The position numbers and the translations under genes are program-made. Under the pieces are notes generated by a model. The model was not told the DNA's origin and made no database searches. It was given only the letters and a program-made list of their open reading frames with translations. A DNA stretch of 61,341 nt, filler included. It is 9 parts of 9 records of this genome, joined end to end, with 100 filler letters (N's around TTAATTAATTAA, not from the genome) between each part and the next. Parts side by side here need not be neighbours in the genome. Positions count along the whole stretch, not along the records: positions 35,493 to 52,470 come from SRR20825010_2741; 8 more parts are not named here. One strand, given 5' to 3'. Shown here piece after piece: positions 35,493-52,048 of the stretch. Numbering within the stretch: the stretch's first letter is position 1; every line of letters begins with the position of its first letter.

Positions 35493-37002
<1,510 letters not shown>

Positions 37003-37353: not shown

Positions 37354-37369
37354 ACTCCGAATTCAGAAT
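37354..37369. promoter_or_regulatory. Palindromic operator copy 1 (consensus ATTCTGAATTCAGAAT)
   Basis: ACTCCGAATTCAGAAT, 14/16 match, upstream of the Rieske/PQQ operon. Confidence 0.65.
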
Positions 37370-37449
37370 ATATATATTAAACCCACAACAAAAATATAGC
37401 TTTCTCGCCCCCAAGCGGGTACCGCATGAAACAAGGAAGGAGATGACAC

Positions 37450-38052
37450 ATGCAAAAAGAGGACAAGTGTTGCGCCTGTGCAGGAGCGCAACCTTTTGAT
37501 GATTCACGCCGCAGGGTGTTCAAAATCGCGGCAGCAGGTATTGCTGCCAGCTTTGGTGTTGCTGGCAATGCCAGCTTGGCATCGGCGGATGCTGCAATCG
37601 ACGGCCCGGTGGCTGGCGACTTTCTGGTGGATGACAACGCCGAAGGCGAGATCAAGCCGATCACGATTGACGACCTTGCTCCACTGAAGCCACTGATTGT
37701 TTATCCGCTCAACCCAAAGACAAACAAGCCCAAAACCGATTCCCGCTTGAATCGCATTGTGTTGATTCGCATGAACAGGGCTGATTTTAGCGACGAATCC
37801 AAAAAAGTCGCTGCAGGCGACGTGTTGGCATTCTCGTCCATTTGCACACATCAAGGTTGCGACGTGAAAACCTGGATGTCGGCTGACAAGGCATTGGCCT
37901 GTTTTTGTCATGGCTCGAAGTTCCAGCCGCTGGATGCGGGTGCCGTGGTTGTTGGCCCTGCCACGCGTGCCATGCCTGTGTTGCCAATCCGTTTGGACGG
38001 CAAAAAAATTGTGGTGGCCGGCGGATTTAAAACACCGCCGGGTGTGGGTTGA
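37450..38052 (+). CDS. Tat-exported Rieske [2Fe-2S] protein (AioB/QcrA-like)
   Basis: SRRRVFK twin-arginine signal; CTHQGC and CFCHGS motifs; GPATRAMP. Confidence 0.9.
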   Translation: MQKEDKCCACAGAQPFDDSRRRVFKIAAAGIAASFGVAGNASLASADAAIDGPVAGDFLVDDNAEGEIKPITIDDLAPLKPLIVYPLNPKTNKPKTDSRLNRIVLIRMNRADFSDESKKVAAGDVLAFSSICTHQGCDVKTWMSADKALACFCHGSKFQPLDAGAVVVGPATRAMPVLPIRLDGKKIVVAGGFKTPPGVG

Positions 38053-38129
38053 TTGCCCGCTGTTGTAAACGACATTAAAACCAGGCGGACGAAAAGTTCG
38101 CACACTTTCCATTTTTGGAGGAGACGACA

Positions 38130-39860
38130 ATGAAGGCTTTTGCGAAGTTGGTGTTTGCGGGTGCTGTGGCGATGAGCCCGTTTGCATCTGCGCATTCTGC
38201 GTTGGGCGACTACACGCCTGTGACTGATGAGCGGTTGAAAAATCCCGAACCAAAAAACTGGTTGCAATATCGGGGCAATTACCAGGGGTGGGGCTACAGC
38301 CCGCTGAACCAGGTCACCGACAAGAACGTTGAGAAACTGAAGCTTGCATGGGCCTTTACCACTGGGCAAACGGAAGGGCATCAGGCCCCTCCGATTGTGA
38401 ACAATGGCTATATGTTTGTGACCACGCCGGGCGGGCAGCTGATTGCCTTGAATGCCAAAACCGGTGAAGAGTTGTGGCGTCACCGCAAGACACTTCCGGG
38501 CGAAATGCTGCAACTTCACCCCACCAACCGTGGTGTGGCTTTGTATGGCGACAAGGTGTACGTTGCCACCGTGGATTGTTTCCTGATTGCGCTGGATGCC
38601 AAAACCGGCAAGGTGGTGTGGGAAAAGCCCGTGGGTGACTGGAAGGCCCTGCAGTACATGACCCTGGCGCCATTGGCGGCCAAAGGGAAAATCATGGTGG
38701 GGTCTTCGGGCGGTGAAACCGGTGTGCGTGGTTTTGTTGCAGCCTATGATGCTGAAACAGGTGAAGAAGCCTGGCGAACCTACACCACCGCAGCCCCAGG
38801 CGAACCCGGTGGCGACACCTGGCCCGGTGAAACCTACAAGAACGGTGGCGGCAGCATCTGGATTACCGGTACTTATGATGCCGACACCAACCTGGCCTAT
38901 TGGGGCACCGGCAACCCTGCACCCTGGCCAACCGAGGGACGCAAGGGTGACAACCTGTACACCAGCTCCGTGATTGCACTGGACGTAGACACCGGCAAGT
39001 TGAAGGGCTACCACCAATACACGCCCAACGATGCCTGGGACTGGGATGAAGTGTCAGCCCCTTTGCTGATTGATACCAAGGTGAACGGCAAAATGACCAA
39101 GACTGCAGTTCATGCCGGACGCAGTGGTTACCTTTGGGTGCTTGAACGCACCAGCAGCAAAATCAATTTCGTCAATGCCTATCCCTTCGTGCACAACAAT
39201 GTGTTCACGTCGATCGATCCAAAAACCGGCCGCCCCACTTACGATAAATCCCGTACACCTGGCATGGGCAAGGCTGTGTCGTTTTGCCCCTCGCTGTGGG
39301 GTGGAAAGGATTGGCCGCCAGAAGCGTACAACCCAAAAACCGGTTTGTTGTACATCCCTGCAAACGACAACCTGTGTGCAGAACTGCCCCCGGCAGAACC
39401 CACCAAATACAAGAAAGGTGAGTTGTACATTGGTTACCCGATTGAAGGCATTTTGACCGGGCTTCGCTGGAAAGATGGCAAGCAACCCAAAACCATGGGT
39501 GAAATTCAAGCTTGGGATCTGAACACAGGCAAGCAAGTGTGGGCGCACAAGTTCCCCACTTTCAACTGGGGGCCTTTGATGACCACCGCAGGCAACCTGG
39601 TGTTTGGTGGCGGCACGAATGACCGCATGTTCCGTGCTTTCAATGCAAAAACCGGCAAATTGCTGTGGGAAACAGCAACGCCTTCCGGTGTAACCGGTGT
39701 GCCCAGCACGTTTGAAGTGGACGGTGAGCAGTACATTGCCGTGCTTTCAGGTTGGGGCGTGGATTCACAGCGCATGCAGGGCAACGTGGATCGATTGACA
39801 GGCAAAACCACCGTGGTGCCGCAGGGTGGCACGGTCATGGTTTACAAGCTTCAAAAATGA
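38130..39860 (+). CDS. PQQ-dependent alcohol/polyol dehydrogenase, possibly lanthanide-dependent
   Basis: Sec signal; YSPLNQV, GGETGVRG, GTGNPAPW, WDWDEV; W-docking repeats (TGEELW, TGKVVW, TGKQVW, TGKLLW). Confidence 0.92.
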   Translation: MKAFAKLVFAGAVAMSPFASAHSALGDYTPVTDERLKNPEPKNWLQYRGNYQGWGYSPLNQVTDKNVEKLKLAWAFTTGQTEGHQAPPIVNNGYMFVTTPGGQLIALNAKTGEELWRHRKTLPGEMLQLHPTNRGVALYGDKVYVATVDCFLIALDAKTGKVVWEKPVGDWKALQYMTLAPLAAKGKIMVGSSGGETGVRGFVAAYDAETGEEAWRTYTTAAPGEPGGDTWPGETYKNGGGSIWITGTYDADTNLAYWGTGNPAPWPTEGRKGDNLYTSSVIALDVDTGKLKGYHQYTPNDAWDWDEVSAPLLIDTKVNGKMTKTAVHAGRSGYLWVLERTSSKINFVNAYPFVHNNVFTSIDPKTGRPTYDKSRTPGMGKAVSFCPSLWGGKDWPPEAYNPKTGLLYIPANDNLCAELPPAEPTKYKKGELYIGYPIEGILTGLRWKDGKQPKTMGEIQAWDLNTGKQVWAHKFPTFNWGPLMTTAGNLVFGGGTNDRMFRAFNAKTGKLLWETATPSGVTGVPSTFEVDGEQYIAVLSGWGVDSQRMQGNVDRLTGKTTVVPQGGTVMVYKLQK

Positions 39861-39997
39861 TGTAACCGCCCCTGGTGTGCGCCGCTGAGCAGAGCAGGAC
39901 GCGCACCGGTCGAGGCGGCTTCGCTTCTTCGTTTGATTCTGGATTCATGCAGTGAAATTCATGCTGCAGGGGATCCCTTTACCTGGAGGTTCAGGCC

Positions 39998-41434
39998 ATG
40001 AGCAGCAAAACATATAAAAACTTCATCAACAACCAGTTTGTTGATTCGTCCTCGGGGGCAACAGTCGAGGTTCGCAATCCAGCCGACAATGCTGTGCTTG
40101 CAGTGGTGCCCGATTCCAGCCGTGAAGATGTTGACCGTGCTGTGCAGGCTGCAAAAAAAGCGCAGCCCGCCTGGGAAAAACTTCCCGCCATTGAGCGCGC
40201 CAATCACATTCGCGCCATTGCCGCGAAAATTCGCGAGAACAAAGAACGCATTGCCAAAGTGATTACGCAAGAGCAGGGAAAAATTCTTGATCTGGCCCGC
40301 GTGGAAGTGGATTTCACCGCCAACTACATGGACTACATGGCCGAGTGGGCACGCCGCATTGAAGGCGAGATTATTCAAAGCGATCGACCCGGCGAAACAA
40401 TTTTTCTGCACCGCAGGCCCATTGGTGTAACAGCGGGTATTTTGCCCTGGAATTTTCCGTTCTTTCTGATTGCCAGAAAGATGGCACCGGCGCTGGTGAC
40501 GGGCAACACCATTGTGATCAAGTCAAGTGAGGAAACGCCGATTAATGCATTTGAATTTGCCGAGCTTGTTGCGCAATCCGGCTTGCCTGCCGGCGTGTTC
40601 AACCTGGTAAGCGGTGGTCGTGAGGCGGGTGGTATTTTGTCCAGCCACACCGATGTGGGTTTGATCACTTTCACTGGCAGCGTGCAAACCGGCATCCGGA
40701 TCATGGAAGCGGCTGCGAAAAACCTGACCCGAGTGAACCTGGAATTGGGTGGCAAGGCACCAGCCATTGTGCTCAATGATGCGGACCTGGAATTGACTGC
40801 AAATGCTTTGCACGGATCCAGAATTTTGAACACCGGGCAAGTGTGCAATGCAGCCGAGCGTGTGTATGTTCAGCGCGGCATTGCCGACGCACTGGTGGAT
40901 CGTGTCAGCAAGCTGATGGCATCGACCCGTTATGGCAACCCCATGACAGAAAGTGGCTTGCAAATGGGCCCACTGATCAACCGGGGTGGCCTGGACAAAG
41001 TGGCCAGCCTGGTGGGCAAGGCGCGCGAGCAGGGTGCTGAAGTAATTACTGGTGGCAGGATTGCCGACCGCGAAGGTTTCCACTACGAGCCCACCGTGGT
41101 CGCGGGTTGCAAACCCGACATGGACATCATGACCCAGGAAATTTTTGGCCCCGTGCTGCCGATCCAGATTGTGGACGATCTGGACGAAGCGATTGCCCAT
41201 GCCAACAACTCCGAGTTTGGCTTGACCTCGTCGATTTTCACGCGCGACCTGAATGCCGCCATGAAAGCCACCACCGAACTTCGCTTCGGTGAAACCTACG
41301 TGAACCGTGAGCATTTTGAGGCCATGCAAGGCTTCCATGCGGGGCGCAGGAAATCAGGCATTGGTGGTGCCGATGGCAAACACGGCCTGTATGAATTCAT
41401 GGAAACCCATGTGGTGTACATGCAAACCCATTAA
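39998..41434 (+). CDS. aldA: AldA-like NAD-dependent aldehyde dehydrogenase (lactaldehyde/glycolaldehyde type)
   Basis: EWARRIEGEIIQSDRPGE, PWNFP, LELGGK, GQVCN, AMQGFHAGRRKSGIGGADGKHGL. Confidence 0.88.
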   Translation: MSSKTYKNFINNQFVDSSSGATVEVRNPADNAVLAVVPDSSREDVDRAVQAAKKAQPAWEKLPAIERANHIRAIAAKIRENKERIAKVITQEQGKILDLARVEVDFTANYMDYMAEWARRIEGEIIQSDRPGETIFLHRRPIGVTAGILPWNFPFFLIARKMAPALVTGNTIVIKSSEETPINAFEFAELVAQSGLPAGVFNLVSGGREAGGILSSHTDVGLITFTGSVQTGIRIMEAAAKNLTRVNLELGGKAPAIVLNDADLELTANALHGSRILNTGQVCNAAERVYVQRGIADALVDRVSKLMASTRYGNPMTESGLQMGPLINRGGLDKVASLVGKAREQGAEVITGGRIADREGFHYEPTVVAGCKPDMDIMTQEIFGPVLPIQIVDDLDEAIAHANNSEFGLTSSIFTRDLNAAMKATTELRFGETYVNREHFEAMQGFHAGRRKSGIGGADGKHGLYEFMETHVVYMQTH

Positions 41435-41493
41435 CCCAAAGCAGTTGAGCAACCCCAACGAGCCCAGACTCACAATTGATAAAAGGAATAAAC

Positions 41494-42351
41494 ATGAGAC
41501 AGCAATCTTTTCTGAAACGATCCGTCAAAACCCTGATCCACAGCGTTGCATTGGTGGTTTTGGGGGCAACTGCCACCGGTGCTCAGGCCATTGATCGTGG
41601 CTTTATTGCACCCCATGAATACGCACTGCCTACCGATTTCAAACCATTCAATATTTTTGCGCAGTATGCTTTCCTGCAGCAAAACGACACGGTCTACGAT
41701 GCCAATGGCAACAAGGCCCAGGGCCCGGGTTCGGAGTTGCTGGTGGGTCTTTCCAAGTATGTTCGCTTGTGGACGCCAGAATCGAACAAGAACATTGGTT
41801 TGGCGTGGGAAGTGATTGTTCCTGAAATAGGAATTCGCGACAAAAACACCAGTTTCTCAACTGGCGGTTTTGGCGACCCCATCACCGGCTTTGCCATTTG
41901 GACCAAGCCTTCCAGTCAATGGGTATTGGGTGCCGACATGTTTGTTTCCGTGCCAGTGGGTGACGAGGCCGTGGGCGGTGGTGATCGCTGGGACTTGCTG
42001 GGCTCCATTTTCTGGGATGCACAATATGGCAAGTTAAACTACACCGGTAATCTGGGCTACCACTTCAATGGTTCATCTGCCCGTGGCACCGCACCCGGTG
42101 ATTATTATCACCTGAACAACCGCTTTGGTTACCGGGTGTCGGATTTGATCGAGCCCTATGTGGGTATTGATTACCAGACCACGGATGGCGTGGCTGGCGC
42201 ACCAGACAGCAATGAAACTGCCTTGGCCGCAGGCATGATGTTCCACATGTATGACCATGCGTCCATCGCGTTGCACTACCAGAAGGGCATCGATGGCGAA
42301 TCCGTTGCACAATCTGATAGTCTGAACCTGAGATTTGTTTACGTATTTTAA
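41494..42351 (+). CDS. Outer-membrane beta-barrel uptake channel (phenol MetA-pathway/SphA-like family)
   Basis: Signal peptide, GFGDP motif, alternating beta-strand pattern, C-terminal Phe (RFVYVF). Confidence 0.75.
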   Translation: MRQQSFLKRSVKTLIHSVALVVLGATATGAQAIDRGFIAPHEYALPTDFKPFNIFAQYAFLQQNDTVYDANGNKAQGPGSELLVGLSKYVRLWTPESNKNIGLAWEVIVPEIGIRDKNTSFSTGGFGDPITGFAIWTKPSSQWVLGADMFVSVPVGDEAVGGGDRWDLLGSIFWDAQYGKLNYTGNLGYHFNGSSARGTAPGDYYHLNNRFGYRVSDLIEPYVGIDYQTTDGVAGAPDSNETALAAGMMFHMYDHASIALHYQKGIDGESVAQSDSLNLRFVYVF

Positions 42352-42467
42352 TTGATTCACCCCTGTTGGAAAGACACCGGTTTTCATCTTGGTTAACCGC
42401 TGCACACAACCTCCAATTTGGTTTGAATCAAGGTGAGGTGTCTTTCTTTTTTTACCAAGGAGTACGC

Positions 42468-43640
42468 ATGGATTTTTCCATTTCCCCGGAACTGCTGGCG
42501 CTTCAGGAGGAGGTTCGCCGATTCATCGCCGAGCAGGTCATCCCGCTGGAAACGGATCCGCGGCAAACTGCACACGGCCCCTCTGAGGACTTGCGCAACG
42601 AGTTGGTGGCCCGGGCACGAAAAGCCGGTTTGCTGACCCCGCATGCACCGCGGGAATTGGGCGGTTTGGGCTTGAGCCACGTTGAAAAAGCAGTGGTGTT
42701 TGAAGAGGCGGGTTATTCCACCCTTGGCCCCACGGCCATGAATATTCATGCCCCCGATGAAGGCAATATTCACTTGATGGAAGTGGTGGCAACACCGGCG
42801 CAAAAAGAGCGTTGGTTAAAGCCGCTGGTGCAGGGAAAAATACGGTCCTGCTTTGCAATGACCGAGCCTGCGCCCGGTGCAGGTGCCGATCCTTCCATGT
42901 TGCAAACCACGGCGGTGAAAGATGGTGATCACTATGTGATTAACGGCGACAAGTGGTTTATCACAGGCGCTGAGGGCGCAAGCTTCGCCATCATCATGGC
43001 CAAGATGGAAGATGGCACCGCCACCATGTTTTTAAGTGATATGAATGCCCCCGGTGTTGAATACGTGCGCACCATGGATGCGATGGACGCCTGTTTCACG
43101 GGTGGACATGGCGTGTTGCGCTTCAACAATCTGCGCGTTCCCGCAGCAGACGTGCTGGGCGAAATTGGCAAGGGTTTCCGTTATGCACAGGTGCGACTTG
43201 CACCCGCACGCTTGACCCATTGCATGCGCTGGCTTGGACAAGCCCGAAGAACACACGAAATTGCACTGGATTACGCACGCAAAAGGCAGGCGTTTGGCGT
43301 GCAGTTGGGTGCGCATGAAGGCATCAGCTTCATGCTGGCCGACAATGAAATTGATTTGCACACAGCAAGGTTGCACATTTGGCACACCGCATGGATGCTG
43401 GATCGCGGCGAACGTTGCAATTTCGAATCAAGCCGCGCGAAGGTCGCCTGTTCCGAAGCCGAATGGCGCGTGGTGGATCGCAGCGTGCAAATTCTGGGTG
43501 GTCAGGGTGTGACAGGTGAAACCATTGTGAGCCGAATATTCACCGACATGCGTGCCTTTAGAATTTACGATGGCCCCAGCGAAGTACACCGCTTCAGCAT
43601 GGGTAAAAAAATTGTGGCTGGCCGGGAACGATCTGCATGA
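42468..43640 (+). CDS. Acyl-CoA dehydrogenase, ACAD10/11-LvaC type
   Basis: APDEGN, RSCFAMTEP, AQVRLAPARLTHCMR, RIYDGPSEVH. Confidence 0.88.
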   Translation: MDFSISPELLALQEEVRRFIAEQVIPLETDPRQTAHGPSEDLRNELVARARKAGLLTPHAPRELGGLGLSHVEKAVVFEEAGYSTLGPTAMNIHAPDEGNIHLMEVVATPAQKERWLKPLVQGKIRSCFAMTEPAPGAGADPSMLQTTAVKDGDHYVINGDKWFITGAEGASFAIIMAKMEDGTATMFLSDMNAPGVEYVRTMDAMDACFTGGHGVLRFNNLRVPAADVLGEIGKGFRYAQVRLAPARLTHCMRWLGQARRTHEIALDYARKRQAFGVQLGAHEGISFMLADNEIDLHTARLHIWHTAWMLDRGERCNFESSRAKVACSEAEWRVVDRSVQILGGQGVTGETIVSRIFTDMRAFRIYDGPSEVHRFSMGKKIVAGRERSA

Positions 43641-44404
43641 ACAATTTATTCAGCCTGAACAACAAGGTGGTCATGGTCACCGGCGCATCCAGTGGCCTGG
43701 GCAGGCACTTCGCCGTGATGCTGGCCAATGCTGGGGCGCACGTGGTGCTGACCGCACGCAAATCTGACAACCTGAACGAGGTGATTGCAGAAATTCACGC
43801 TGCAGGGCAGCGCGCCACAGCCATTGCGCTGGACGTCAGCAGTGCTGCATCGGTGAAGAAGGCCATTGCCAGCACCATTGAGCAGGTGGGTGTGCCGGAT
43901 GTGTTGGTGAACAACGCAGGGCAGTCGATTGCCAAACCCATGCTGGAGCAGACAGAAGAAGACTGGGACCAGATCATGGATACCAACCTGAAAGGTTGCT
44001 GGCTGATGGCCACTGAACTGGCTCGCGCACTGGTGGCCGAAGGAAAGCCGGGCGCCATTGTGAACGTGGCATCCATTCTGGGTGAAAGGGTGGGGGGCGC
44101 AGTGGGGCCCTATGCCATTTCCAAGGCAGGTGTGGTGCAGGCCACCAAAGCCATGGCGCTTGAATTGTCGCGTTACAGCATCCGTGTGAATGCGCTGTTG
44201 CCGGGCTATGTGGCCACCAACCTGAACCGTGATTTTCTGAAAAGCGAACTGGGCGAGAAATTGCGCATGCGAATTCCATCGCGCCAGTTTTGTTCGCTTG
44301 AAGACCTGGATGGGCCTTTGCTGTTGCTGGCCTCCGATGCCGGTTCCGGCATGACGGGTGCGTGCGTTGCAGTGGATCGCGGGCACCTGGTCAGCGGGCT
44401 GTAG
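43637..44404 (+). CDS. SDR oxidoreductase (LvaD-like ketoacyl-CoA reductase)
   Basis: TGASSGLG, NNAG, YAISK; ATGA overlap with the upstream gene. Confidence 0.88.
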   Translation: MNNLFSLNNKVVMVTGASSGLGRHFAVMLANAGAHVVLTARKSDNLNEVIAEIHAAGQRATAIALDVSSAASVKKAIASTIEQVGVPDVLVNNAGQSIAKPMLEQTEEDWDQIMDTNLKGCWLMATELARALVAEGKPGAIVNVASILGERVGGAVGPYAISKAGVVQATKAMALELSRYSIRVNALLPGYVATNLNRDFLKSELGEKLRMRIPSRQFCSLEDLDGPLLLLASDAGSGMTGACVAVDRGHLVSGL

Positions 44405-44414
44405 GGCAGTAGCG

Positions 44415-45428
44415 ATGAACAAAATTCAACAGGAAGCAATTGAGCGTTTTGTGACACAGGTAGCGGGTGCTGCCCATGTGCACATTGCCCAGGTGAAGTT
44501 GTTGTCAGGCGGTGCTGTTCAGGAAAACTGGTTGCTTGACCTGTTGATTGAAGGCGGCCCGCACCAGGGCACCCTGGAAGCTGTGTTGCGATGTGACTCC
44601 CCCACGGCCGGAGTTGCAATAAGCCATGGCCGCGCCCAGGAATTTGCCCTGCTCAACACTGTGTTTGAAGCCGGTGTTACCGTGCCGCAACCCCTGTGGC
44701 TGTGCGAAGACCTGTCCGTGTTTGGCCGCCCCTTTTTCCTGATGCGCCGCATTCGCGGAACGGCGGCAGGCCATGTGCTGGTGAAAGACCAAGGCGTTAA
44801 AAACAGGGCTGAATTGGCACATCGGCTGGGGCAGGAGCTGGCGAGAATTCATTCCGTGCGCCCGCCGAATGCTGCACTGAATTTCATGCCATTGCATGGT
44901 GAATCGCCTGCGGCACACAGCGTAAAACAATACCGTTCGTTTCTGGATCGCCACCACACGCCTTACCCGGCGCTGGAATGGGGGCTTCGCTGGCTTGAAC
45001 GCCACGCCCCACCCAAGGGTTTGCTCACTTTGACCCATGGCGACTTTCGCACCGGGAATTACATGGTGGACGAGCAGGGTTTGACCGGCATTCTGGATTG
45101 GGAATTTGCAGGCTGGGGCGACCCGCTGGAAGACCTGGGCTGGTTTTGTGCAAAATGCTGGCGCTTCGGCCAAAACGACATGCAGGCCGGTGGTATTGGT
45201 TCTCGGGAAGATTTTTACGCAGGTTATGAAGCCGAATCACGGCGCACAATTGAGCGCAGCGAGGTTCATTACTGGGAAGTGATGGCCCACATGAAATGGG
45301 CAATTATTGCGATTCAGCAGGCCGAACGCCATTGTTCTGGTGAAGAGGATTCGCTGTTGCTGGCCCTGACCGGGCACATTGTGCCCGAGCTTGAATGGGA
45401 AATATTGAACATGACGGAGCACAACTGA
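44415..45428 (+). CDS. APH-family phosphotransferase (LvaA-like hydroxyacyl-CoA kinase)
   Basis: LSGGAVQENW, HGDFRTGN, LDWEFA, GDPLEDLGW. Confidence 0.85.
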   Translation: MNKIQQEAIERFVTQVAGAAHVHIAQVKLLSGGAVQENWLLDLLIEGGPHQGTLEAVLRCDSPTAGVAISHGRAQEFALLNTVFEAGVTVPQPLWLCEDLSVFGRPFFLMRRIRGTAAGHVLVKDQGVKNRAELAHRLGQELARIHSVRPPNAALNFMPLHGESPAAHSVKQYRSFLDRHHTPYPALEWGLRWLERHAPPKGLLTLTHGDFRTGNYMVDEQGLTGILDWEFAGWGDPLEDLGWFCAKCWRFGQNDMQAGGIGSREDFYAGYEAESRRTIERSEVHYWEVMAHMKWAIIAIQQAERHCSGEEDSLLLALTGHIVPELEWEILNMTEHN

Positions 45429-45802
45429 TGCGTGAACAACCCACAGGTGTTGCCCTTTTGCAATGCGCGCGCGATGTGCTGAAAATCAAAGTATTGCCCT
45501 TGCTGGGTGGTGATGCCAAACGCGACGTGTTGATGGTGATGAATGCCATGTCGATCGCGCAGCGCGAACTGGGGGCGGGCAGCGCACCCACTGAAACAGA
45601 ACAGCAATCCCTTTCCCAGTTGTTGGGTGAACCAGTGTTTGACCTGCAACTGGCCAATCGCACCCTGGGTGCACGCATTCGTGCTGGTGAAGCTGACCCT
45701 GGGCGGGAAGAACGCACAGCAGTGTTGGCCCATTTGCGCACGATTGGTCGCCACCGTTTGCAGGCCAGTAACCCCAAGGTGTTGAAGGCTGACAACACAT
45801 GA
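45428..45802 (+). CDS. DUF6285 / LvaB-like small protein
   Basis: MREQPTG..LL..AR, NAMSIAQRE, RIRAG, L..SNPK; TGATG overlap with the kinase gene. Confidence 0.78.
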   Translation: MREQPTGVALLQCARDVLKIKVLPLLGGDAKRDVLMVMNAMSIAQRELGAGSAPTETEQQSLSQLLGEPVFDLQLANRTLGARIRAGEADPGREERTAVLAHLRTIGRHRLQASNPKVLKADNT

Positions 45803-46470
45803 GCACCCTGGTGTTGATGCGCCACGGGCAGGCCTCATTTGGCGCTGCAAAATACGATGCGCTGACCCGTCAAGGTGAGTCGCAAGCACGCGCCACAGGC
45901 CTGTGGATGCGCCAGCATGGCATTGCGCCAACAGCCCTGGTGCATGGGCCCCGGCAACGGCAAATTCATTCTGCAAAGCTGCTGCTTGAGGGCGCACGCA
46001 TGGCGTGCACACCCGCCGAAGTCAATGCTCTGGATGAGTTCGCCGAGGGCGAAGAAATTTTTGCCGCAGCCGAAAAACATTTCGGCAGACCCATGTGGGA
46101 ATCGATCGGCAGAAGCAGTACGGATGTACTGCGCGACTACGATGCTGCCTGTCGCGCCTGGTCGCTTGACGAACTGGAAATTCCAGGGTGCTTGTCGATC
46201 GATGAGTTCCGTGCGGAGGTTTGCCAGTGGTTCGAGCAAACCACTGGCACTGCGGATTCCGGGCAGTGTGTACTTGCGGTTACTTCAGCGGGTGTAATCG
46301 CGACGCTTGTGTGCGAAGTAATGGGTTTGCCCAACAGCAAATGGCATTCATTGTTGCGGGTGATCCGCAATGCATCGCTGACCGATATTCTGTACTCCAA
46401 AGGGCGAAGCAGCTTGCTTGCCTTTAATGGAGTGGGGCATCTTCCCGATGCCCTTACTTCCTCTGTGTAA
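45799..46470 (+). CDS. Histidine phosphatase family protein
   Basis: LMRHGQASFG..YD.L, LDEF, VTSAGVI, FNGVGHL. Confidence 0.88.
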   Translation: MSTLVLMRHGQASFGAAKYDALTRQGESQARATGLWMRQHGIAPTALVHGPRQRQIHSAKLLLEGARMACTPAEVNALDEFAEGEEIFAAAEKHFGRPMWESIGRSSTDVLRDYDAACRAWSLDELEIPGCLSIDEFRAEVCQWFEQTTGTADSGQCVLAVTSAGVIATLVCEVMGLPNSKWHSLLRVIRNASLTDILYSKGRSSLLAFNGVGHLPDALTSSV

Positions 46471-46472
46471 CT

Positions 46473-47189
46473 TCAGGCTCGCATCAGTTTTCGTTTGCCC
46501 GCAGGTGCTTCTTCTTGTGCCGGGTTGTTGGCCATGTTTTCCATCAAGCGCGCAATCATGAAGTCTGCAGCCTGCGTAATGTGCTCACGGCCCAGGCGTT
46601 CAGCGGCGGCACCATCGCCTTCCACAATGGTTTCAAGCATGGCCTCGTGCTGGCTCCACACGTTGCGCGGCTGTTCATCGCTTTTCAACACTTCACCCAT
46701 CACGCGTTGGGTGTTGAGCCAGTGCGATTCCATGGCGGGGGGAATCAGGGGGTTCTCGGCCAGGTGGTAAATGAAGTGGTGAAAGGCCATGTCCGCAGCA
46801 ATCATCTCCCGGAATGAATGGTTGCTGACCGCTTTCAAACCGGCCTTGATCAGGGCATGACCCTTAACTTTGGCATTTTTGCTGTTCAGTTCTGCGGCAC
46901 GCCGACAGGCCAGCCCTTCGATCACCGCCCGCATGTCGTACATATTGCGAACGTAGTTTGGGTCCAGCGGCGCAACCAACAGGCCGCGGCCCGGCGCATC
47001 CACCAACACACCTTGGTTTCGCAAAAGCGCAAGTGCCTGCTGAATGGGTTGCCGGGACACACCAAGTTCCTTGGCCAGTTGTTCTTGGATGATTCGGGAG
47101 CCAGAGCGCAGTGTGCCCCCGGAAATTTCTCCCAGCAGGACTTTGTAGACCTGTTCCACAAGCTTTGGCGTTGTTTCGATCGCTTTCAT
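46473..47189 (-). CDS. GntR/FCD (VanR-like) transcriptional regulator
   Basis: LAKELGVSRQPIQQAL wHTH; DMAFH and QHEAM FCD motifs. Confidence 0.92.
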   Translation of the reverse strand: MKAIETTPKLVEQVYKVLLGEISGGTLRSGSRIIQEQLAKELGVSRQPIQQALALLRNQGVLVDAPGRGLLVAPLDPNYVRNMYDMRAVIEGLACRRAAELNSKNAKVKGHALIKAGLKAVSNHSFREMIAADMAFHHFIYHLAENPLIPPAMESHWLNTQRVMGEVLKSDEQPRNVWSQHEAMLETIVEGDGAAAERLGREHITQAADFMIARLMENMANNPAQEEAPAGKRKLMRA

Positions 47190-47230
47190 GAAATACGTGC
47201 CCCAATCAACAGAATATATAAGGAATTAAA

Positions 47231-48970
47231 TCACACTTTCTTTGAATTCGGTGTGCAACGCCAATCGCGTTCCGCAGTGTCCCAGGCCGCCAGTGCCTGA
47301 TAGTCGGGAACCCAGGCCAAGCCTGATTTTGCGTCTGATGATACCGCTTCTGGCGTGACCAGTACATCCAGCAGGGCTGGCCTGTTTGCCATGGCCCGTT
47401 CAATGGCACCTTCAAGGTCTTCCACACGTTCCACACGCTCTGAGTACAACCCAAAAGCTTTTGCCATGGATGCATGGTCGGCAAACTGCAAGCGGGTGCC
47501 GCACACCGTTCCGTGTGTTTCCTGCTGGTCCCGAACCTCGATAGCCCATGCACCGTTGTTGGCAACCACGATCAACACCGGTGCCTTGTGACGGGCAGCG
47601 GTGTCCATTTCCATGGCGTTGAATCCGAATGATCCATCCCCAGTGGCCACCAGCACAGTGTGGTCGGGCTTTGCAAGACTGGCCGCAACACCAAAGGGCG
47701 TGCCCACGCCAATGCAGCCCAGTGAGCCTGGATCCAGATACGTGCTTGCAGGCAAACCAACCCGCGCAAAGCTGAGAAAATCGCCACCGTCTGCCACCAC
47801 CACTGATTTTTCTGGCAAGGCCTGTCGCAAGGCATACAGCAGCCTGTTGGGGTGCATTAATCCGTCTTTGCCGTTGGGTGCGTTGCGCATGCTTTCCAGC
47901 AGCTTGGCCGATCGGTCTTTGTGTTGTTGATGAAGCCCGTTGATCCACTTCAGATCGGTTGCTGGTGCGCGATCGCCTGCACACGCCAGAATGTCTTCAA
48001 TGGCCAGACGGGGGGTGGAAAACAGTTCCACCACGCCACGCCGGTTGTCGCGAAGTTCGCTGGCACAGTCGGCAATTCTTACGAATTCGGCTTGCCCAAA
48101 CACAGCCGGTGAACCATAGGCCAACTGGAAATCAAGTTTGCGACCAATGGTTAAAATAACGTCGGCCTGCCCCATCACTGCGCCGCGCATGGCTGCAACC
48201 ACGCTGGGGTGTTCTTCACTGACCAGGCCCCGGCTTTCACCCGTGTCCAGGTAGGCCGCCTGCAGTCGATCCAACAGCTTTGTCAGTGCAGGGCCTGCGC
48301 CCTGCGCGCCACGGCCGGTGATGACCAAGGGGCGCTTGGCCGACCACAAACGTTCCATGGCTTGCTCGATGGCAGCCTGCGGTGCTCCAAATTCCTGACG
48401 GTTTTTCGGGGCAAGGTGTTCTTGCAGAACCACTGCTTGCGGCACCTCACTGCGCAGCGTGTTCACGGGAAAGTCCAGGTAGACCGGACCGGGCTCGCCA
48501 TGGTGACCCAGTGCGCGTGAAACCGCTTCATCCAGTTCTTGCAGAACCAGCTCTGGTTCCCGAACTGTTTTGGCATATCGGGTGATGGATCGAACCAGGT
48601 CGGTGTGCACCATGTCTTGCAGGGCACCCCGGTTTTCCTGAAGGGTAGGGGGGGTGCCTGAAAGCACCAACACCGGTACGCGGGCCACATTGGCATTGGC
48701 AATGCCTGTCATGGCATTGGTCACGCCTGGGCCTGCCGTAACCAGTGCCACGCCAAACTGGCCTGTCAATTGCGCTTCTGCGTGGGCCATGTAAACGGCG
48801 GCCCTTTCGTCGCGCACATCCACTATTTGAATGCCTTCGGCGTGCAGCCGCATCCAGACGGGCATGATGTGCCCGCCGCACAGGGCATAAACCCTTTTAA
48901 TGCCGCGCGCCTTCAAAAACCGCGCGATAAGTGCGGCGGCGCTGTGCTCTGAAATTTGCATGGTGGCCAT
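47231..48970 (-). CDS. ThDP-dependent enzyme, 2-hydroxyacyl-CoA lyase-like
   Basis: LCGGHI, RDERAA, TAGPG, GDGSFG...NNGAWAIE ThDP motif; C-terminal SSDAKSGLAWVPDYQAL. Confidence 0.82.
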   Translation of the reverse strand: MATMQISEHSAAALIARFLKARGIKRVYALCGGHIMPVWMRLHAEGIQIVDVRDERAAVYMAHAEAQLTGQFGVALVTAGPGVTNAMTGIANANVARVPVLVLSGTPPTLQENRGALQDMVHTDLVRSITRYAKTVREPELVLQELDEAVSRALGHHGEPGPVYLDFPVNTLRSEVPQAVVLQEHLAPKNRQEFGAPQAAIEQAMERLWSAKRPLVITGRGAQGAGPALTKLLDRLQAAYLDTGESRGLVSEEHPSVVAAMRGAVMGQADVILTIGRKLDFQLAYGSPAVFGQAEFVRIADCASELRDNRRGVVELFSTPRLAIEDILACAGDRAPATDLKWINGLHQQHKDRSAKLLESMRNAPNGKDGLMHPNRLLYALRQALPEKSVVVADGGDFLSFARVGLPASTYLDPGSLGCIGVGTPFGVAASLAKPDHTVLVATGDGSFGFNAMEMDTAARHKAPVLIVVANNGAWAIEVRDQQETHGTVCGTRLQFADHASMAKAFGLYSERVERVEDLEGAIERAMANRPALLDVLVTPEAVSSDAKSGLAWVPDYQALAAWDTAERDWRCTPNSKKV

Positions 48971-49049
48971 GGTGATGTCTCCTCATTTTTCTGGTGCCGG
49001 TCTAAAACCGTGGTTGCAAACTCGTCAATTTCGATTAGAATAATATCGC

Positions 49050-49065
49050 ATTCTGAATTCGGAAT
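49050..49065. promoter_or_regulatory. Palindromic operator copy 2
   Basis: ATTCTGAATTCGGAAT, 15/16 match, in the divergent lyase/ligase promoter. Confidence 0.7.
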
Positions 49066-49115
49066 ATAGAATTTAAAGCTATATTCTTTCAAATAAAGTT
49101 GAGGAGACTGGCAAC

Positions 49116-50684
49116 ATGAGTCAATTGATGACTATTTCCGATGCGGTACAAGCCCATGCCAGGCTGCGCCCTGCAACGCTGGCAGCCCGTGATTCGCGCC
49201 GCGCACTGTCGTACCGGCAGCTTGACGAGCGCGCAGGCAAACTGGCTTCTGCATTGATTGATCTTGGGCTTACACGCGGGGACCGCGTGGCGGTGCTGGC
49301 CTACAACTGCGTGGAATGGATGGAAATGTACGTGGGGCTTGCGCGTGCGGGTCTGGTGGCTGTGCCTTTGAATTTCCGTTTGAGTGGGCCTGAAATTGAA
49401 TACATTTTGCTGGATTGCAAAACGAGTTGCATGATTGCCGGCCCGGATTTCACAGCCGTTGTGGACTCCATTCGCGACAAGCTGGAATTTCCCGAAGCAC
49501 GATTCATTGCCTTGGGCGAGACGGCTCCGTCGGGTTGGCTGTCTTATGAATCAATGGTGTCGCAGGCCCCCTGGCCCCGCGAATTTGAGCCGGTCGCTGC
49601 CGATGAAATGTGTGCCCTGATGTACACATCCGGTACCACGGGCCGACCCAAAGGTGCTGTTCGCCAGCACGAGGGCAGTACCCTGATTGCCATGGCCACG
49701 GCGCTGGAAATGGGCTTTACACACGCAGACATTGCCTTGCTGGTGATGCCCCTGTGCCATGCAAATTCCCTCTACTTTGCAAACACATTTCTGCACACGG
49801 GCGGTGCCTGCATTATTGACGACAGCAAAAGCTTCAACCCCGAACATTTGCTGCGCACTTTGTCTGAAGAGAAGGTGACCTTCACCTCGCTGGTGCCTAC
49901 GCACTACATCATGATTTTGTCTTTGCCTGATGAGGTGAAAGCAAAATACGACATGAGCACCGTGGGCAAGTTGCTGGTTTCCTCGGCACCTGCACGAAAA
50001 GACACCAAACTTGCAATCCTGGATTATTTTAAAAACGGCAAGCTGTATGAACTGTACGGTTCAACCGAGGCTGGGTGGGTCACCTTGCTGCGCCCGGAGG
50101 AGCAAATTTCCAAGCTGGGTTCCGTGGGGCGTGAATGGGCTTGTAGCGGCGCCATTCGCCTGCAGGATGAGCATGGCAATGAGGTGCCGGATGGTGAGGT
50201 GGGCGAGCTTTTTTCGCGAACCTCGTATGTGTTCAAAGGGTACTGGCAAAACGATGAAAAAACCAAAGAAGCTTTTCGCGGTGCCTGGTGTTCAGTGGGG
50301 GACATGGCGCGGCGCGATCAGGATGGTTACATTTGGTTGGTCGACCGGAAAAGCAACATGATCATCAGTGGTGGCGAGAACATTTACCCCTCGGAAGTGG
50401 AGGCGGTGGTGGGCGCGCACCCCAAGGTGAAAGATGTGGCGGTGATCGGTGTGCCGCATGAAAAATGGGGTGAAACAGTACAGGCGGTGGTGGTGCCACA
50501 TGTGGGCCAGCAGCTTGACGAGACCGAGCTGAAAAGCTGGTGCCGGGAGCGGCTTGCGACATTTAAATGCCCCACATCGATTGTGTTCATCCAGGACGAT
50601 GAAATGCCCCGCACGGCTACAGGCAAGATTCTTCATCGTATACTACGGCAAAAGTTAGGCGGCACGAACACCGCTGCCGCATAG
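49116..50684 (+). CDS. Acyl-CoA synthetase (AMP-forming)
   Basis: YTSGTTGRPKG, YGSTE, GD...DRK..MIISGGENIYP.EVE, PRTATGK. Confidence 0.92.
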   Translation: MSQLMTISDAVQAHARLRPATLAARDSRRALSYRQLDERAGKLASALIDLGLTRGDRVAVLAYNCVEWMEMYVGLARAGLVAVPLNFRLSGPEIEYILLDCKTSCMIAGPDFTAVVDSIRDKLEFPEARFIALGETAPSGWLSYESMVSQAPWPREFEPVAADEMCALMYTSGTTGRPKGAVRQHEGSTLIAMATALEMGFTHADIALLVMPLCHANSLYFANTFLHTGGACIIDDSKSFNPEHLLRTLSEEKVTFTSLVPTHYIMILSLPDEVKAKYDMSTVGKLLVSSAPARKDTKLAILDYFKNGKLYELYGSTEAGWVTLLRPEEQISKLGSVGREWACSGAIRLQDEHGNEVPDGEVGELFSRTSYVFKGYWQNDEKTKEAFRGAWCSVGDMARRDQDGYIWLVDRKSNMIISGGENIYPSEVEAVVGAHPKVKDVAVIGVPHEKWGETVQAVVVPHVGQQLDETELKSWCRERLATFKCPTSIVFIQDDEMPRTATGKILHRILRQKLGGTNTAAA

Positions 50685-50696
50685 CCGGTTTACGAC

Positions 50697-50722
50697 ATGG
50701 CGACACAGGTCGCCATTTTTTT
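50697..50722 (+). terminator. Rho-independent terminator
   Basis: ATGGCGAC-ACAG-GTCGCCAT followed by T6. Confidence 0.8.
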
Positions 50723-50743
50723 CAACCTGATTCTCTTATCCAG

Positions 50744-51715
50744 ATGCAACAAATTTTTCTGGTTACTTTGCCGTTTTTTGCCCTGATTCTTTGTGGCTAT
50801 CTGGCCACCCGGGGGCGTCTGTTGCCTTTGGGCGCGATCCCCGGGCTGAATGCATTTGTGTTGTATTTCGCTTTGCCCAGCATGCTGTTTCAGTTTGCGT
50901 CCAATATGGATGTTGCTGAACTGTTTGATCCGCACACGATATTTGTTTATATGCTATGTGCTTTGCTGATGGTGTTTCTGACGGTGTTCACGACCCGCCG
51001 CGGCAACACCAACTGGAACAATGCCGCTTTCGGTGCACTGGTTGCGGCATTTCCCAATTCCGGTTTCATGGGCATGCCAATACTGGTTTCGCTGGTGGGT
51101 GCCGGCGGCGTTGGGCCTGCGGTGGTGTCCATTTCAATCGACATGATCATTACTTCATCGCTGTGCATTGCTTTGTCACGTTTGGGGCAGCGTGGTGATG
51201 GCGGTGCCGTGGAGGCTGCACGAAAAGCCATGAAGGGTGTGTTGCTGAATCCACTGCCCTGGGCGGTGGTGTTGGGCGCAATTTGTTCGGCCACTGCATT
51301 TCGTTTTTATGAGCCGCTTGACCAGATCATCAAGATGTTTGCCAATTCCTGTTCGCCCATCGCCCTGTTCACCATTGGTGCCATGCTGGCTCGTCCGCCC
51401 GCCACAGCTGCGGTGGATTCCCCACCCGCCGGACGTTTCAAACTGGGCGATATCCATTTGATCGTGGTGTACAAATTGATTGTTCACCCGCTGCTGGTGC
51501 TGGGTGTGGGCTATGTGTACACGCAAATGGGTTTTGATTTGTCGCCGCAGGCGCTTACCGTGCTGGTGCTTGTGGCGGCGCTGCCAAGTGCAAGCAGCAT
51601 CACCGTGCTTGCGGAAAAGTTTGAAGCGGATTCCAGGCGAATTGCGCAGATCGTCCTGTTTTCAACCGCCATTGCATTTTTAACTTTTTCTACGGCAGTG
51701 AAGTGGTTGCTGTGA
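50744..51715 (+). CDS. AEC family transporter
   Basis: LNAFVLYFALP, FPNSGFMGMP, NP, PIALFTIG, KLIVHP, ALPSA. Confidence 0.9.
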   Translation: MQQIFLVTLPFFALILCGYLATRGRLLPLGAIPGLNAFVLYFALPSMLFQFASNMDVAELFDPHTIFVYMLCALLMVFLTVFTTRRGNTNWNNAAFGALVAAFPNSGFMGMPILVSLVGAGGVGPAVVSISIDMIITSSLCIALSRLGQRGDGGAVEAARKAMKGVLLNPLPWAVVLGAICSATAFRFYEPLDQIIKMFANSCSPIALFTIGAMLARPPATAAVDSPPAGRFKLGDIHLIVVYKLIVHPLLVLGVGYVYTQMGFDLSPQALTVLVLVAALPSASSITVLAEKFEADSRRIAQIVLFSTAIAFLTFSTAVKWLL

Positions 51716-51726
51716 CCTGCTAAAAA

Positions 51727-51757
51727 CACAAGGGGCAATATTTACTGACCCCTTGTG
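51727..51757. terminator. Hairpin between convergent AEC transporter and pqqA genes
   Basis: CACAAGGGG...CCCCTTGTG. Confidence 0.6.
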
Positions 51758-51782
51758 AACCAGAAGCAACGGATGATTGTTG

Positions 51783-51857
51783 TTAGCGGTTGGCAATGTA
51801 CATGGTGATTTCAAAACCAAATCGCATGTCAACGAATGCCGGTGTAGTCCAGGTCAT
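51783..51857 (-). CDS. pqqA: PQQ precursor peptide PqqA (24 aa; absent from ORF track)
   Basis: Manual translation [24 protein letters not shown] with the E-xxx-Y core; GAGGAG RBS. Confidence 0.95.
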
Positions 51858-51931
51858 GAATGTCTCCTCGTGAATTGAATGGTGCATCTTCGAAGGATGC
51901 TCAACGTGAATTGATCACCATTTAATACTAC

Positions 51932-51947
51932 ATTCTGTATTCAGAGT
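51932..51947. promoter_or_regulatory. Palindromic operator copy 3
   Basis: ATTCTGTATTCAGAGT, 14/16 match, upstream of pqqA. Confidence 0.65.
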
Positions 51948-52028
51948 TCGCAATATTTTTTTAGTCCCTATTGGGATTTGTACTGATTCGATCGAATAGG
52001 GTGTGGAAATTAACATTCTTTAATATAA

Positions 52029-52048
52029 ATAAGAATAATTATCATTAT
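52029..52048. promoter_or_regulatory. Fur box
   Basis: ATAAGAATAATTATCATTAT (reverse complement ATAATGATAATTATTCTTAT) upstream of a TonB receptor. Confidence 0.75.

Follow-up and report, generated by a model that had tools for sequence, protein, structure and literature searches.

A DNA stretch of 61,341 bases (hereafter the window) was analyzed, which consists of nine contigs joined by eight N44-TTAATTAATTAA-N44 linkers. The gene cluster considered here fills a single contig of 16,978 bases (35493-52470) from a freshwater/marine Limnobacter. It encodes a thiamine diphosphate (ThDP)-dependent lyase with an acyl-CoA ligase, a GntR/FCD regulator and an AEC transporter; a kinase and an acyl-CoA dehydrogenase (ACAD) that resemble those of the levulinate (lva) operon of Pseudomonas putida; and a pyrroloquinoline quinone (PQQ)-dependent alcohol dehydrogenase (PQQ-ADH) with a Rieske protein. 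The lyase recurs beside one or both of the other two modules in many loci, and the cluster is tentatively read as one regulon for short hydroxylated compounds.

Genes and features of the Limnobacter contig

Protein families were assigned by Pfam and NCBIfam profile searches, and structural relatives by PDB sequence matches (Table 1). All 13 proteins named in the initial annotation, which had been made from the sequence alone, were found in their places, and pqqA is also real. The true starts of the ACAD, kinase and DUF6285 genes were judged from homologue alignments and ribosome-binding sites. The katG and TonB-dependent receptor genes are incomplete because the contig ends cut both. They flank the cluster as annotated, but the label of a Fur-regulated receptor is unconfirmed: no Fur box was found at three or fewer mismatches to a 19-base consensus, and positions 52031-52049 agree with that consensus at 14 of 19 positions by eye.

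The nearest public relatives are from Limnobacter. The ThDP enzyme is 98% identical in a locus of a metagenome-assembled genome (MAG; L002) and 89% identical in L. olei P1 (L001). The junction between the 291-aa gene and the ACAD gene is spanned by contigs X1, X3, and X6, and that between the histidine phosphatase and GntR genes by X1, X3, and X7. These bridging contigs come from four separately coded studies, X1 possibly being from the same sample as the source. The gene arrangement is thus no assembly chimera. Elsewhere in the window, the contig at 16345-27555 has a G+C content of 36-40%, compared with 51-65% in the other contigs, and may be foreign DNA or mis-binned.

Table 1. Positions of the genes, operator-like sites and linkers, counted along the window
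Feature	Position	Strand	Evidence or remark
katG (catalase-peroxidase), N-terminal two thirds	35493..36963	-	846 bits on NF011635, covering profile positions 3-481 of 725
Operator-like palindrome O1	37354..37369	.	1 mismatch to ATTCTGAATTCGGAAT; Rieske gene about 80 bases downstream
Rieske [2Fe-2S] protein, exported by twin-arginine translocation (TAT)	37450..38052	+	PF00355; twin-arginine leader; CTHxGC / CxCHGS motifs
PQQ alcohol dehydrogenase, periplasmic, lanthanide type (from motif)	38115..39860	+	methanol/ethanol-family model TIGR03075, 577.4 bits (cut-off 480)
AldA-type NAD aldehyde dehydrogenase, cytoplasmic	39998..41434	+	743 bits on the E. coli AldA equivalog NF007497 (cut-off 500)
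291-aa secreted protein, probable outer-membrane channel (Phenol_MetA_deg / SphA-like)	41476..42351	+	Atlas features
ACAD, LvaC / ACAD10-11 type	42468..43640 (open reading frame opens at 42366)	+	best PDB match ACAD11 (2wbi, 205 bits; 8v3u)
Short-chain dehydrogenase/reductase (SDR), LvaD position	43637..44404	+	PF13561 / PF00106
APH-family kinase, LvaA type	44415..45428 (open reading frame opens at 44358)	+	PF01636; PDB 9o56, 3dxp, ACAD11 kinase domain
DUF6285 small protein, LvaB position	45428..45802 (open reading frame opens at 45395)	+	PF19802, 67 bits
Histidine phosphatase, branch 1 (His_Phos_1)	45799..46470	+	PF00300
GntR/FCD regulator	46473..47189	-	PF00392 + PF07729
ThDP-dependent short-chain 2-hydroxyacyl-CoA lyase (predicted)	47231..48970	-	NF058623; PDB 7pt1
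Operator palindrome O2	49050..49065	.	exact ATTCTGAATTCGGAAT; divergent lyase/ligase promoter region
FadD-like acyl-CoA ligase	49116..50684	+	PF00501 + PF13193
AEC / Mem_trans transporter	50744..51715	+	PF03547
pqqA, orphan, 24-aa PQQ precursor peptide	51783..51857	-	read and translated from the sequence
O3, degenerate pair of operator-like sites upstream of pqqA	51932..51954	.	two overlapping matches, 3 mismatches each
TonB-dependent receptor, N-terminal Plug part	52081..52470	+	PF07715
Linkers	3424-3523, 6846-6945, 11838-11937, 16245-16344, 27556-27655, 30988-31087, 35393-35492, 52471-52570		

Enzymes of the three modules

The ThDP enzyme scored 799.3 bits on the NF058623 equivalog (cut-off 600). 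The next family reached 335 bits, and the score lies far above those of the acetolactate synthase and oxalyl-CoA decarboxylase models. All three domains of ThDP enzymes (PF02776, PF00205, and PF02775) are present above their cut-offs. The alignment with the Actinomycetospora enzyme 7pt1 gave 573 bits and reached residue 567 of 579, the PDB chain numbering being the native numbering plus 11. In this alignment, E478 and Q118 correspond to the catalytic Glu493 and the conserved Gln128 of the actinobacterial enzyme, and L117 and I477 to the size-limiting Leu127 and Ile492. These four are the residues singled out by Zahn et al. (PMC8760513), Glu493 being the acid/base. The profile, structural and residue matches agree with the initial assignment as a 2-hydroxyacyl-CoA lyase, and the enzyme is, by its sequence, an orthologue-grade relative of the actinobacterial 2-hydroxyisobutyryl-CoA lyase.

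The C-terminal lid is also kept, with 9 of 12 residues identical in a 12-residue helical breakout. This lid confines the actinobacterial lyase to C4 and C5 acyl groups (PMC8760513). Since the lid is conserved, the best prediction for the window lyase is the same limit of C4-C5 acyl groups, which narrows the branched or 2,4-dihydroxy compounds and glycol ethers that had been listed as candidate substrates. Long-chain alpha-oxidation was rejected because of the conserved lid, and pantoate-type substrates were rejected by reasoning, as their quaternary C3 would block elimination.

The neighbors of the lyase were surveyed in public sequences, where 143 of 594 pattern matches were confirmed and the best 80 loci were kept. 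In nine of these 80 (L054, L060, L061, L063, L066, L068, L069, L073, and L078), the lyase stands beside a mutase large subunit, a B12-binding subunit, and a ligase. The HcmA-like large subunit gave 834 bits to the 2-hydroxyisobutyryl-CoA mutase 4r3u, and the ligase 828 bits to the 2-hydroxyisobutyryl-CoA synthetase 6hdw. These neighbors therefore tie the proteobacterial lyase family to 2-hydroxyisobutyrate metabolism. The window lyase probably cleaves 2-hydroxyisobutyryl-CoA, its likely preferred substrate, to acetone and formyl-CoA. The loci with lyase and mutase encode two fates of the same CoA ester together.

The lyase also has neighbors of its own kind. An orthologue of the FadD-like ligase (at least 55% identity) stands beside it in 50 of the 80 loci and one of the GntR/FCD regulator (at least 45% identity) in 55, many of the loci without either being short contigs. 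An AEC transporter orthologue (at least 45% identity) was found in 21. The best PDB matches of the window ligase are fatty-acyl-CoA and feruloyl-CoA synthetases, and no chain of the 6hdw type (PaaK-like HCL) is among its 52 PDB matches. It shares 32% identity with the ligase at the LvaE position of the P. putida locus described below. From these comparisons, the ligase is classed as the cognate partner of the lyase and as neither of the HCL nor of the LvaE type. Two other observations concern the surroundings of the lyase. In a Zoogloeaceae MAG (L017, about 13908; its contig is shared with L084, about 14193), a second lyase paralogue with 53% identity is located between the lyase unit and the Lva-type module. 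Five loci (L024, L032, L035, L043, and L046) have a RuBisCO large-subunit gene at a distance of no more than 10 kb from the lyase.

The second module was compared with a locus of P. putida (G003, L173), in which a sigma-54 regulator, kinase, 118-aa DUF6285 protein, ACAD, SDR, ligase, and symporter follow one another. By its architecture, this locus presumably corresponds to the published lva operon, and LvaB is presumably the DUF6285 gene after the kinase. The operon, reportedly described by Rand in 2017, is said to convert levulinate via 4-hydroxyvaleryl-CoA and 4-phosphovaleryl-CoA to 3-hydroxyvaleryl-CoA. The window proteins at the LvaA, LvaB, LvaC, and LvaD positions are 51% (kinase), 38% (DUF6285, E 1e-16), 72% (ACAD), and 56% (SDR) identical to their counterparts in this locus. 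The regulators are of different families, the P. putida protein having Sigma54_activat and PrpR_N domains. R277, H285, R288, and D402 of the window ACAD align with R626, H634, R637, and D753 of ACAD11. According to Rashan et al., the catalytic Asp and the Arg/His/Arg helix determine the use of phosphorylated substrates (PMC10802472). The match of the kinase to the ACAD11 kinase domain is weak (54.8 bits; 8v3v residues 60-254). These signature residues and identities bear out the Lva-type phospho-isomerization module of the initial annotation.

With 4-hydroxyhexanoyl-CoA as the substrate, Paquay et al. found that Burkholderia homologues of the kinase and ACAD could stand in for the domains of ACAD10; their kinase favors the R form (PMC11342911). 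Phosphorylation of 4-hydroxyacyl-CoA and elimination of the phosphate are known for homologues from P. putida, Burkholderia, and mammals, and the window APH protein is a putative 4-hydroxyacyl-CoA kinase of the LvaA type and the ACAD a putative phosphate-eliminating flavoenzyme of the LvaC/ACAD10-11 type. The SDR may act on 4-oxo- or 4-hydroxyacyl-CoA or on 3-hydroxyacyl-CoA. For DUF6285, nothing was found in the literature searched. The histidine phosphatase stands beside the module only in Limnobacter, Rhodocyclaceae/Zoogloeaceae, an unclassified Burkholderiales MAG (L089), and the alphaproteobacterial loci L099, L101, and L114. As a module-closing gene, it is reminiscent of the additional HAD phosphatase-like domain in ACAD10.

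The third module begins with the Rieske and PQQ-ADH genes. An Asp two residues past the catalytic Asp is the lanthanide signature of PQQ dehydrogenases. The best PDB match of the PQQ-ADH is the quinoprotein ethanol dehydrogenase 6zcv/6zcw (369 bits), and its D309-W-D311 aligns with D-F-D of 6zcv. The additional Asp is required for lanthanide dependence (bioRxiv 10.1101/2020.02.25.964783). From this DxD motif, the enzyme is assigned to the lanthanide-type alcohol dehydrogenases, as the suggested relevance of lanthanides to the PQQ module had implied. The Rieske protein has 200 aa, a twin-arginine leader, and both Rieske cluster motifs. A Rieske gene is located upstream of the PQQ-ADH orthologue in all 15 lyase loci that have this enzyme (L009, L017, L020, L030, L032, L036, L038, L039, L044, L047, L057, L059, L062, L067, and L076). 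No cytochrome c domain was detected by Pfam among the 13 cluster proteins, and the Rieske protein occupies that position. It is probably the electron acceptor of the PQQ-ADH and possibly represents an undescribed acceptor class for quinoproteins; a Rieske protein linked to a quinoprotein dehydrogenase was not found in the literature searched.

The 291-aa protein, annotated as a porin, has channel-like features (Atlas feature score 0.98, with 28 of 30 matches in the Phenol_MetA_deg/SphA outer-membrane channel set). The name rests on this feature-based match, as no Pfam or NCBIfam profile matched the protein. Its orthologues stand beside AldA in L009, L015, L020, and L030. At the other end of the cluster, the PqqA product carries E-I-T-M-Y, and a PqqA peptide is recognized by a length of about 24 aa and by Glu and Tyr three residues apart. 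A copy with 100% identity is located at the same place in L001 (about 7116) and L002 (about 7114). In L. olei, this orphan gene and its operator-like site are kept, although the genome is without a PQQ-ADH orthologue (best match 44%).

Linkage, control and proposed function

The survey also covered the recurrence of the other modules near the lyase. Orthologues were counted at identities of at least 60% for the ACAD and at least 55% for the PQQ-ADH, and a locus with at least 6 kb on both sides of the lyase was called well-flanked. Among the 32 well-flanked loci, the ACAD was found in 10, the PQQ-ADH in 11, both in 5, and either in 16. The corresponding numbers for all of the best 80 loci are 16, 15, 5, and 26. 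A single-copy gene is estimated to be present by chance in such a 20-kb span in less than 1% of loci. At least eight gene orders occur among the linked loci. In Massilia jejuensis, the gene order of the window is found with a thiolase gene (L100, 11259-12533) between the AEC carrier and the GntR regulator. A quick tree was built from 71 lyases, with 9 of the 80 loci omitted because they were partial. The loci with ACAD and/or PQQ neighbors are spread over five or more of its lineages, namely the Leptothrix/Rhizobacter group, two Oxalobacteraceae groups, Limnobacter, and Rhodocyclaceae/Zoogloea; the window lyase is sister to that of L. olei and next to Rhodocyclaceae. The concern that the modules might not co-occur elsewhere is removed by these data, since they recur near the lyase in many Betaproteobacteria and in varied orders.

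In seven loci (L019, L039, L040, L043, L047, L062, and L079), the ACAD gene starts at or just past the lyase stop on the same strand. A gene of a tripartite ATP-independent periplasmic (TRAP) carrier is near the lyase in all of these except L079. In six compared loci (L032, L039, L040, L043, L047, and L062), TRAP genes identified by Pfam are directly upstream of the lyase, their frames having been picked by conservation across the six. An APH gene after the ACAD encodes a protein about 25-29% identical to the window kinase in L039, L040, L043, L047, and L062. The kinase of L039 (13578-14786), the only one of these examined, is of the stand-alone ACAD11 type, scoring 424 bits against 3dxp and 255 against the kinase domain of ACAD11. 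The same ACAD orthologue is thus paired with the LvaA-type kinase and DUF6285 in the window, Zoogloea, and Massilia, or with a stand-alone ACAD11/3dxp-type kinase without DUF6285 in Leptothrix (L039). By these alignments, the exchange looks like a non-orthologous kinase swap beside the same ACAD orthologue.

The modules are also connected by a shared motif. The 16-base palindrome ATTCTGAATTCGGAAT has 10 matches at three or fewer mismatches, compared with 0.90 expected, and none of 100 shuffles reached 10. This confirms the operator that had been noticed at three promoters of the cluster. O1 sits within a promoter-like site (37350-37378) with the hexamers TTGAAC-17-TATATT, and O2 is overlapped by promoter-like sites on both strands. 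One further match is on a different contig (21334). A copy with two mismatches is located within the kinase gene (45090-45105), where chance or an internal site is possible. In 16 of the 80 loci, the palindrome core TTCNGAATTCNGAA occurs exactly, and it is then no more than 141 bases upstream of the lyase. Therefore, it can be considered a conserved operator of the lyase unit. The adjacent GntR/FCD protein, by its position, is the probable repressor acting on it. In L. olei, an exact TTCNGAATTCNGAA is found at the place equivalent to O3 upstream of pqqA (L001, 7029-7042). In Zoogloea, the palindrome (L090, 4931-4944) is upstream of a TRAP-ACAD-SDR-kinase-DUF6285 operon that adjoins the lyase unit. 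Within the window, a terminator-like hairpin (50697-50716) lies ahead of the AEC transporter gene.

The history of the locus can be followed in Limnobacter. In five loci (L082, L083, L085, L087, and L088), ACAD, SDR, APH, DUF6285, and histidine phosphatase genes are followed by the receptor, without lyase or PQQ modules, and katG was detected upstream of the module in L083, L085, and L087. In L087, the filler genes at one side encode LysR, isochorismatase, and pirin proteins, and those at the opposite side encode YCII, glyoxalase, and a sigma factor. In L. olei, the left fillers are retained, the lyase unit and pqqA are on the right, and there is no PQQ module. In the MAG closest to the window, a PQQ-ADH orthologue with 93% identity is on another contig. 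The Lva-type module is therefore resident at the katG-receptor locus, and the two other modules replaced its neighbors on either side. A single inserted island, as first annotated, does not agree with these loci.

From these data, it is proposed, with confidence somewhat short of even, that the cluster is a single regulon under GntR control, serves hydroxylated alcohols and acids of short chain length (about C4-C7), and uses both known 4-hydroxy-acid routes. It would have arisen in Limnobacter when two modules were added around one that was already resident. The substrate would enter through the outer-membrane channel. In the periplasm, the lanthanide-type PQQ-ADH, wired to the TAT-exported Rieske protein, would oxidize a diol, and AldA would make the hydroxy acid; alternatively, the acid may enter directly through the AEC carrier (TRAP carriers in relatives). 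The FadD-like ligase would form the CoA ester. The LvaA/LvaB-type kinase would then phosphorylate a 4-hydroxyacyl-CoA, the LvaC/ACAD11-type flavoenzyme would eliminate the phosphate to give a 2-enoyl- or 3-hydroxyacyl-CoA, and the SDR would interconvert 4-oxo and 4-hydroxy forms or oxidize the 3-hydroxy product. The lyase would cleave a short 2-hydroxyacyl-CoA, giving formyl-CoA plus acetone or a small aldehyde, the aldehyde being oxidized by AldA. Such 2-hydroxyacyl-CoA esters may come from 1,2-diols, from acid uptake, or from a 4-hydroxy acid that undergoes one round of beta-oxidation instead of the kinase route; by our reasoning, a 4-hydroxy-4-methyl acid would leave exactly 2-hydroxyisobutyryl-CoA.

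Both routes are known from liver, where perfused-liver tracing identified a major route of 4-hydroxy acids via 4-phosphoacyl-CoA and a minor route in which beta-oxidation, alpha-oxidation and again beta-oxidation succeed one another (PMC12440821). The 2-hydroxyacyl-CoA of the minor route arises after a single round of beta-oxidation, with 2-hydroxyheptanoyl-CoA as the intermediate (PMC4693237). The liver runs its phospho and beta/alpha-oxidation routes in parallel (PMC12440821), so the sequence of hydroxyl rearrangement followed by one-carbon (C1) cleavage that was first suggested is not needed.

Several findings weigh against a single regulon. In the Pfam and NCBIfam searches, no enoyl-CoA hydratase, thiolase, formyl-CoA disposal or acetone disposal gene was found in the cluster; for formyl-CoA, this absence had already been annotated. 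Hydantoinase_B (PF02538, acetone carboxylase family) was not found in Limnobacter G001 and G002, stand-in genomes that may be incomplete. As a side observation, each of these genomes has two family III CoA-transferases (PF02515), distant from the cluster. The promoter scan was overall not above chance (12 sites, compared with 9.0 +/- 3.2). The lineage tree is a quick search, and many loci scored as having neither module are short contigs.

Further points of this kind favor a different account, in which three separate pathways are co-located without a shared metabolite and their adjacency reflects hot-spot insertion or loose co-regulation. The lyase-ligase-GntR unit with PQQ-ADH and AldA would then serve 2-methylpropane-1,2-diol or 2-hydroxyisobutyrate-like compounds, and the Lva-type module levulinate or 4-hydroxy acids. 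This account is considered unlikely, but it is the most serious competitor. The Lva-type module was already at this locus in Limnobacter, being native between katG and the receptor in the five loci without lyase. It is mostly found without the lyase, which is near only 5 of the 80 closest kinase loci. Half of the well-flanked lyase loci, 16 of 32, have neither the ACAD nor the PQQ module, from which it is concluded that the lyase-ligase-GntR core functions alone. The actinobacterial cluster needs neither kinase nor ACAD (PMC7176365). No operator lies immediately upstream of the ACAD gene in the window, and a gap of 116 bases separates it from the 291-aa gene, so co-transcription is unproven. 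However, this gap holds no terminator-like site, and the ACAD set follows PQQ genes that carry the operator. The gap-free, same-strand lyase-ACAD-SDR-kinase arrangement of seven loci, the operator ahead of the ACAD operon in Zoogloea, and an association that recurs across five or more lineages, in varying gene orders and with two types of kinase, also argue against independent pathways.

A more novel reading of the cluster, which is considered rather improbable, is a dedicated toolbox for acids and diols with a tertiary, non-oxidizable hydroxyl, in which the Rieske protein rather than a cytochrome c accepts the PQQ-ADH electrons. Such compounds could come from hydrated or oxidized isoprenoids, isoprene oxidation products, or fuel-oxygenate residues. 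A hydroxyl left at C4 by beta-oxidation would be removed by phosphorylation and elimination, and one at C2 (2-hydroxyisobutyryl- or 2-hydroxy-2-methylbutyryl-CoA) by ThDP-dependent C1 cleavage.

All genes could also form a single linear pathway for a bifunctional 2-hydroxy acid that also bears a hydroxy or oxo group at C5; 2,5-dihydroxypentanoate, derived from a triol or from a tetrahydrofuran alcohol, would be an example. The lyase would shorten the molecule, AldA and the ligase would convert the 4-hydroxy or 4-oxo aldehyde so formed to a 4-hydroxyacyl-CoA, and the SDR, kinase, and ACAD would feed beta-oxidation. Every enzyme would be used once, which would explain AldA and a single ligase serving both halves; lyase and ACAD share an operon in seven loci, and TRAP carriers suggest a carboxylate substrate. 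The conserved lid and the equivalents of L127 and I492 predict C4-C5 acyl groups instead, the family is tied genomically to 2-hydroxyisobutyrate enzymes, with acetone rather than a 4-hydroxy aldehyde as the product, and no candidate substrate is supported by any result. Such a pathway is judged very unlikely. A lyase working in the direction of condensation, in which formyl-CoA and a ketone or aldehyde would give a 2-hydroxyacyl-CoA for the assimilation of acetone or C1 units and the other modules would process the products, is almost certainly not the answer: the actinobacterial reaction is reversible (PMC8760513; PMC13327070) and the adjoining mutase of nine loci would give 3-hydroxybutyryl-CoA, but a formyl-CoA source (formyl-CoA transferase, oxalate genes) was neither found in the window nor recurrent in 5 or more of the 80 loci, the constant partners are a CoA ligase and a catabolic-type repressor, and the available physiological evidence is only for cleavage (PMC7176365).

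Many Burkholderiales have a lyase of this family, together with a ligase, a probable repressor, and an operator of its own, and the family is repeatedly joined, even in one operon, to a 4-hydroxyacyl-CoA kinase/ACAD system. Tertiary hydroxy acids such as 2-hydroxyisobutyrate are difficult substrates for degradation, and to our knowledge only two bacterial routes are in print, the B12-dependent mutase and the actinobacterial lyase. The mammalian counterparts of the kinase/ACAD system, ACAD10 and ACAD11, had no assigned function until 2024-2025. Should the linkage be metabolic, both liver 4-hydroxy-acid routes would have a compact counterpart in bacteria. If the tertiary-alcohol toolbox is correct, it would be a novel way for bacteria to deal with tertiary alcohols and would add a new class of redox partner for quinoproteins. 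As a separate lead, the pairing of the Rieske protein with the PQQ dehydrogenase bears on electron transfer by quinoproteins, and lidded short-chain lyases are of interest to synthetic one-carbon chemistry. The linkage is solid and widespread, the biochemistry is predictable, and carriers include cultured strains: Massilia jejuensis KACC 12634 with all three modules, Leptothrix discophora CCM 2812 with a TRAP-lyase-ACAD-SDR-kinase operon and the PQQ module, and L. olei P1 with the lyase and Lva modules.

Comparison with known systems

Each module has a described counterpart, and the combination is undescribed in the literature searched. The initial claim that no described pathway has this combination therefore holds for the whole, but not for the part made up of GntR, lyase, CoA ligase, and alcohol and aldehyde dehydrogenases, which matches the Actinomycetospora route by function. 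In the literature searched, the lyase was not found joined with levulinate or LvaC, or, among the papers listed, with PQQ in a bacterial cluster, and lyase and ACAD11 were co-mentioned only in animal proteome studies. No description was found in the main texts searched for the proteobacterial lyase-FadD-ligase-GntR unit with its operator, for the recurrent joining of this unit to the 4-hydroxyacyl-CoA module, for the Rieske/PQQ-dehydrogenase pair, or for co-located lyase and mutase acting on one substrate.

Rohwerder (2020) described the conversion of 2-methylpropane-1,2-diol to 2-hydroxyisobutyrate and then to acetone and formyl-CoA in Actinomycetospora chiangmaiensis, whose cluster contains GntR, lyase, CoA ligase, and aldehyde and alcohol dehydrogenase genes (PMC7176365). 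In both clusters, a GntR regulator and a CoA ligase adjoin a ThDP lyase of the same equivalog, with shared catalytic and size-limiting residues and lid (structures 7pt1-7pt4). Alcohol and aldehyde dehydrogenases are also common to both, the window PQQ-ADH and AldA being presumed functional analogues of MpdB and MpdC. The Actinomycetospora ligase is a PaaK-like HCL, whereas that of the window is FadD-like. Instead of MpdB, the window has a lanthanide-type PQQ alcohol dehydrogenase, which is periplasmic and paired with a Rieske protein. The host of the window cluster is betaproteobacterial, and the cluster additionally contains pqqA, an Lva-type module, and genes for an AEC carrier and an outer-membrane channel.

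Compared with the PedH/ExaF-type lanthanide PQQ dehydrogenases, the window enzyme is likewise a type I PQQ-ADH with the additional Asp. It differs in that no cytochrome c gene adjoins it and that a TAT-exported Rieske protein is its constant neighbor in the 15 loci. With the P. putida lva operon, as represented by the lva-ordered locus L173, the window shares homologues of the kinase, DUF6285 protein, ACAD, and SDR. Their order is C-D-A-B in the window, with a histidine phosphatase added; an LvaE-type ligase and a sigma-54 LvaR are absent, and a GntR regulon is found instead.

The window ACAD resembles mammalian ACAD10 and ACAD11 in its catalytic Asp and Arg/His/Arg helix and in the logic of a kinase step followed by elimination, but kinase and ACAD are separate proteins in the window and the kinase is of the LvaA/LvaB type. 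The minor liver route likewise has a 2-hydroxyacyl-CoA lyase as its key enzyme, but the window lyase is of the short-chain, lidded type and not HACL1. By analogy with these systems, the cluster would hold bacterial counterparts of both liver 4-hydroxy-acid routes together with an actinobacterial-style 2-hydroxyisobutyrate route.

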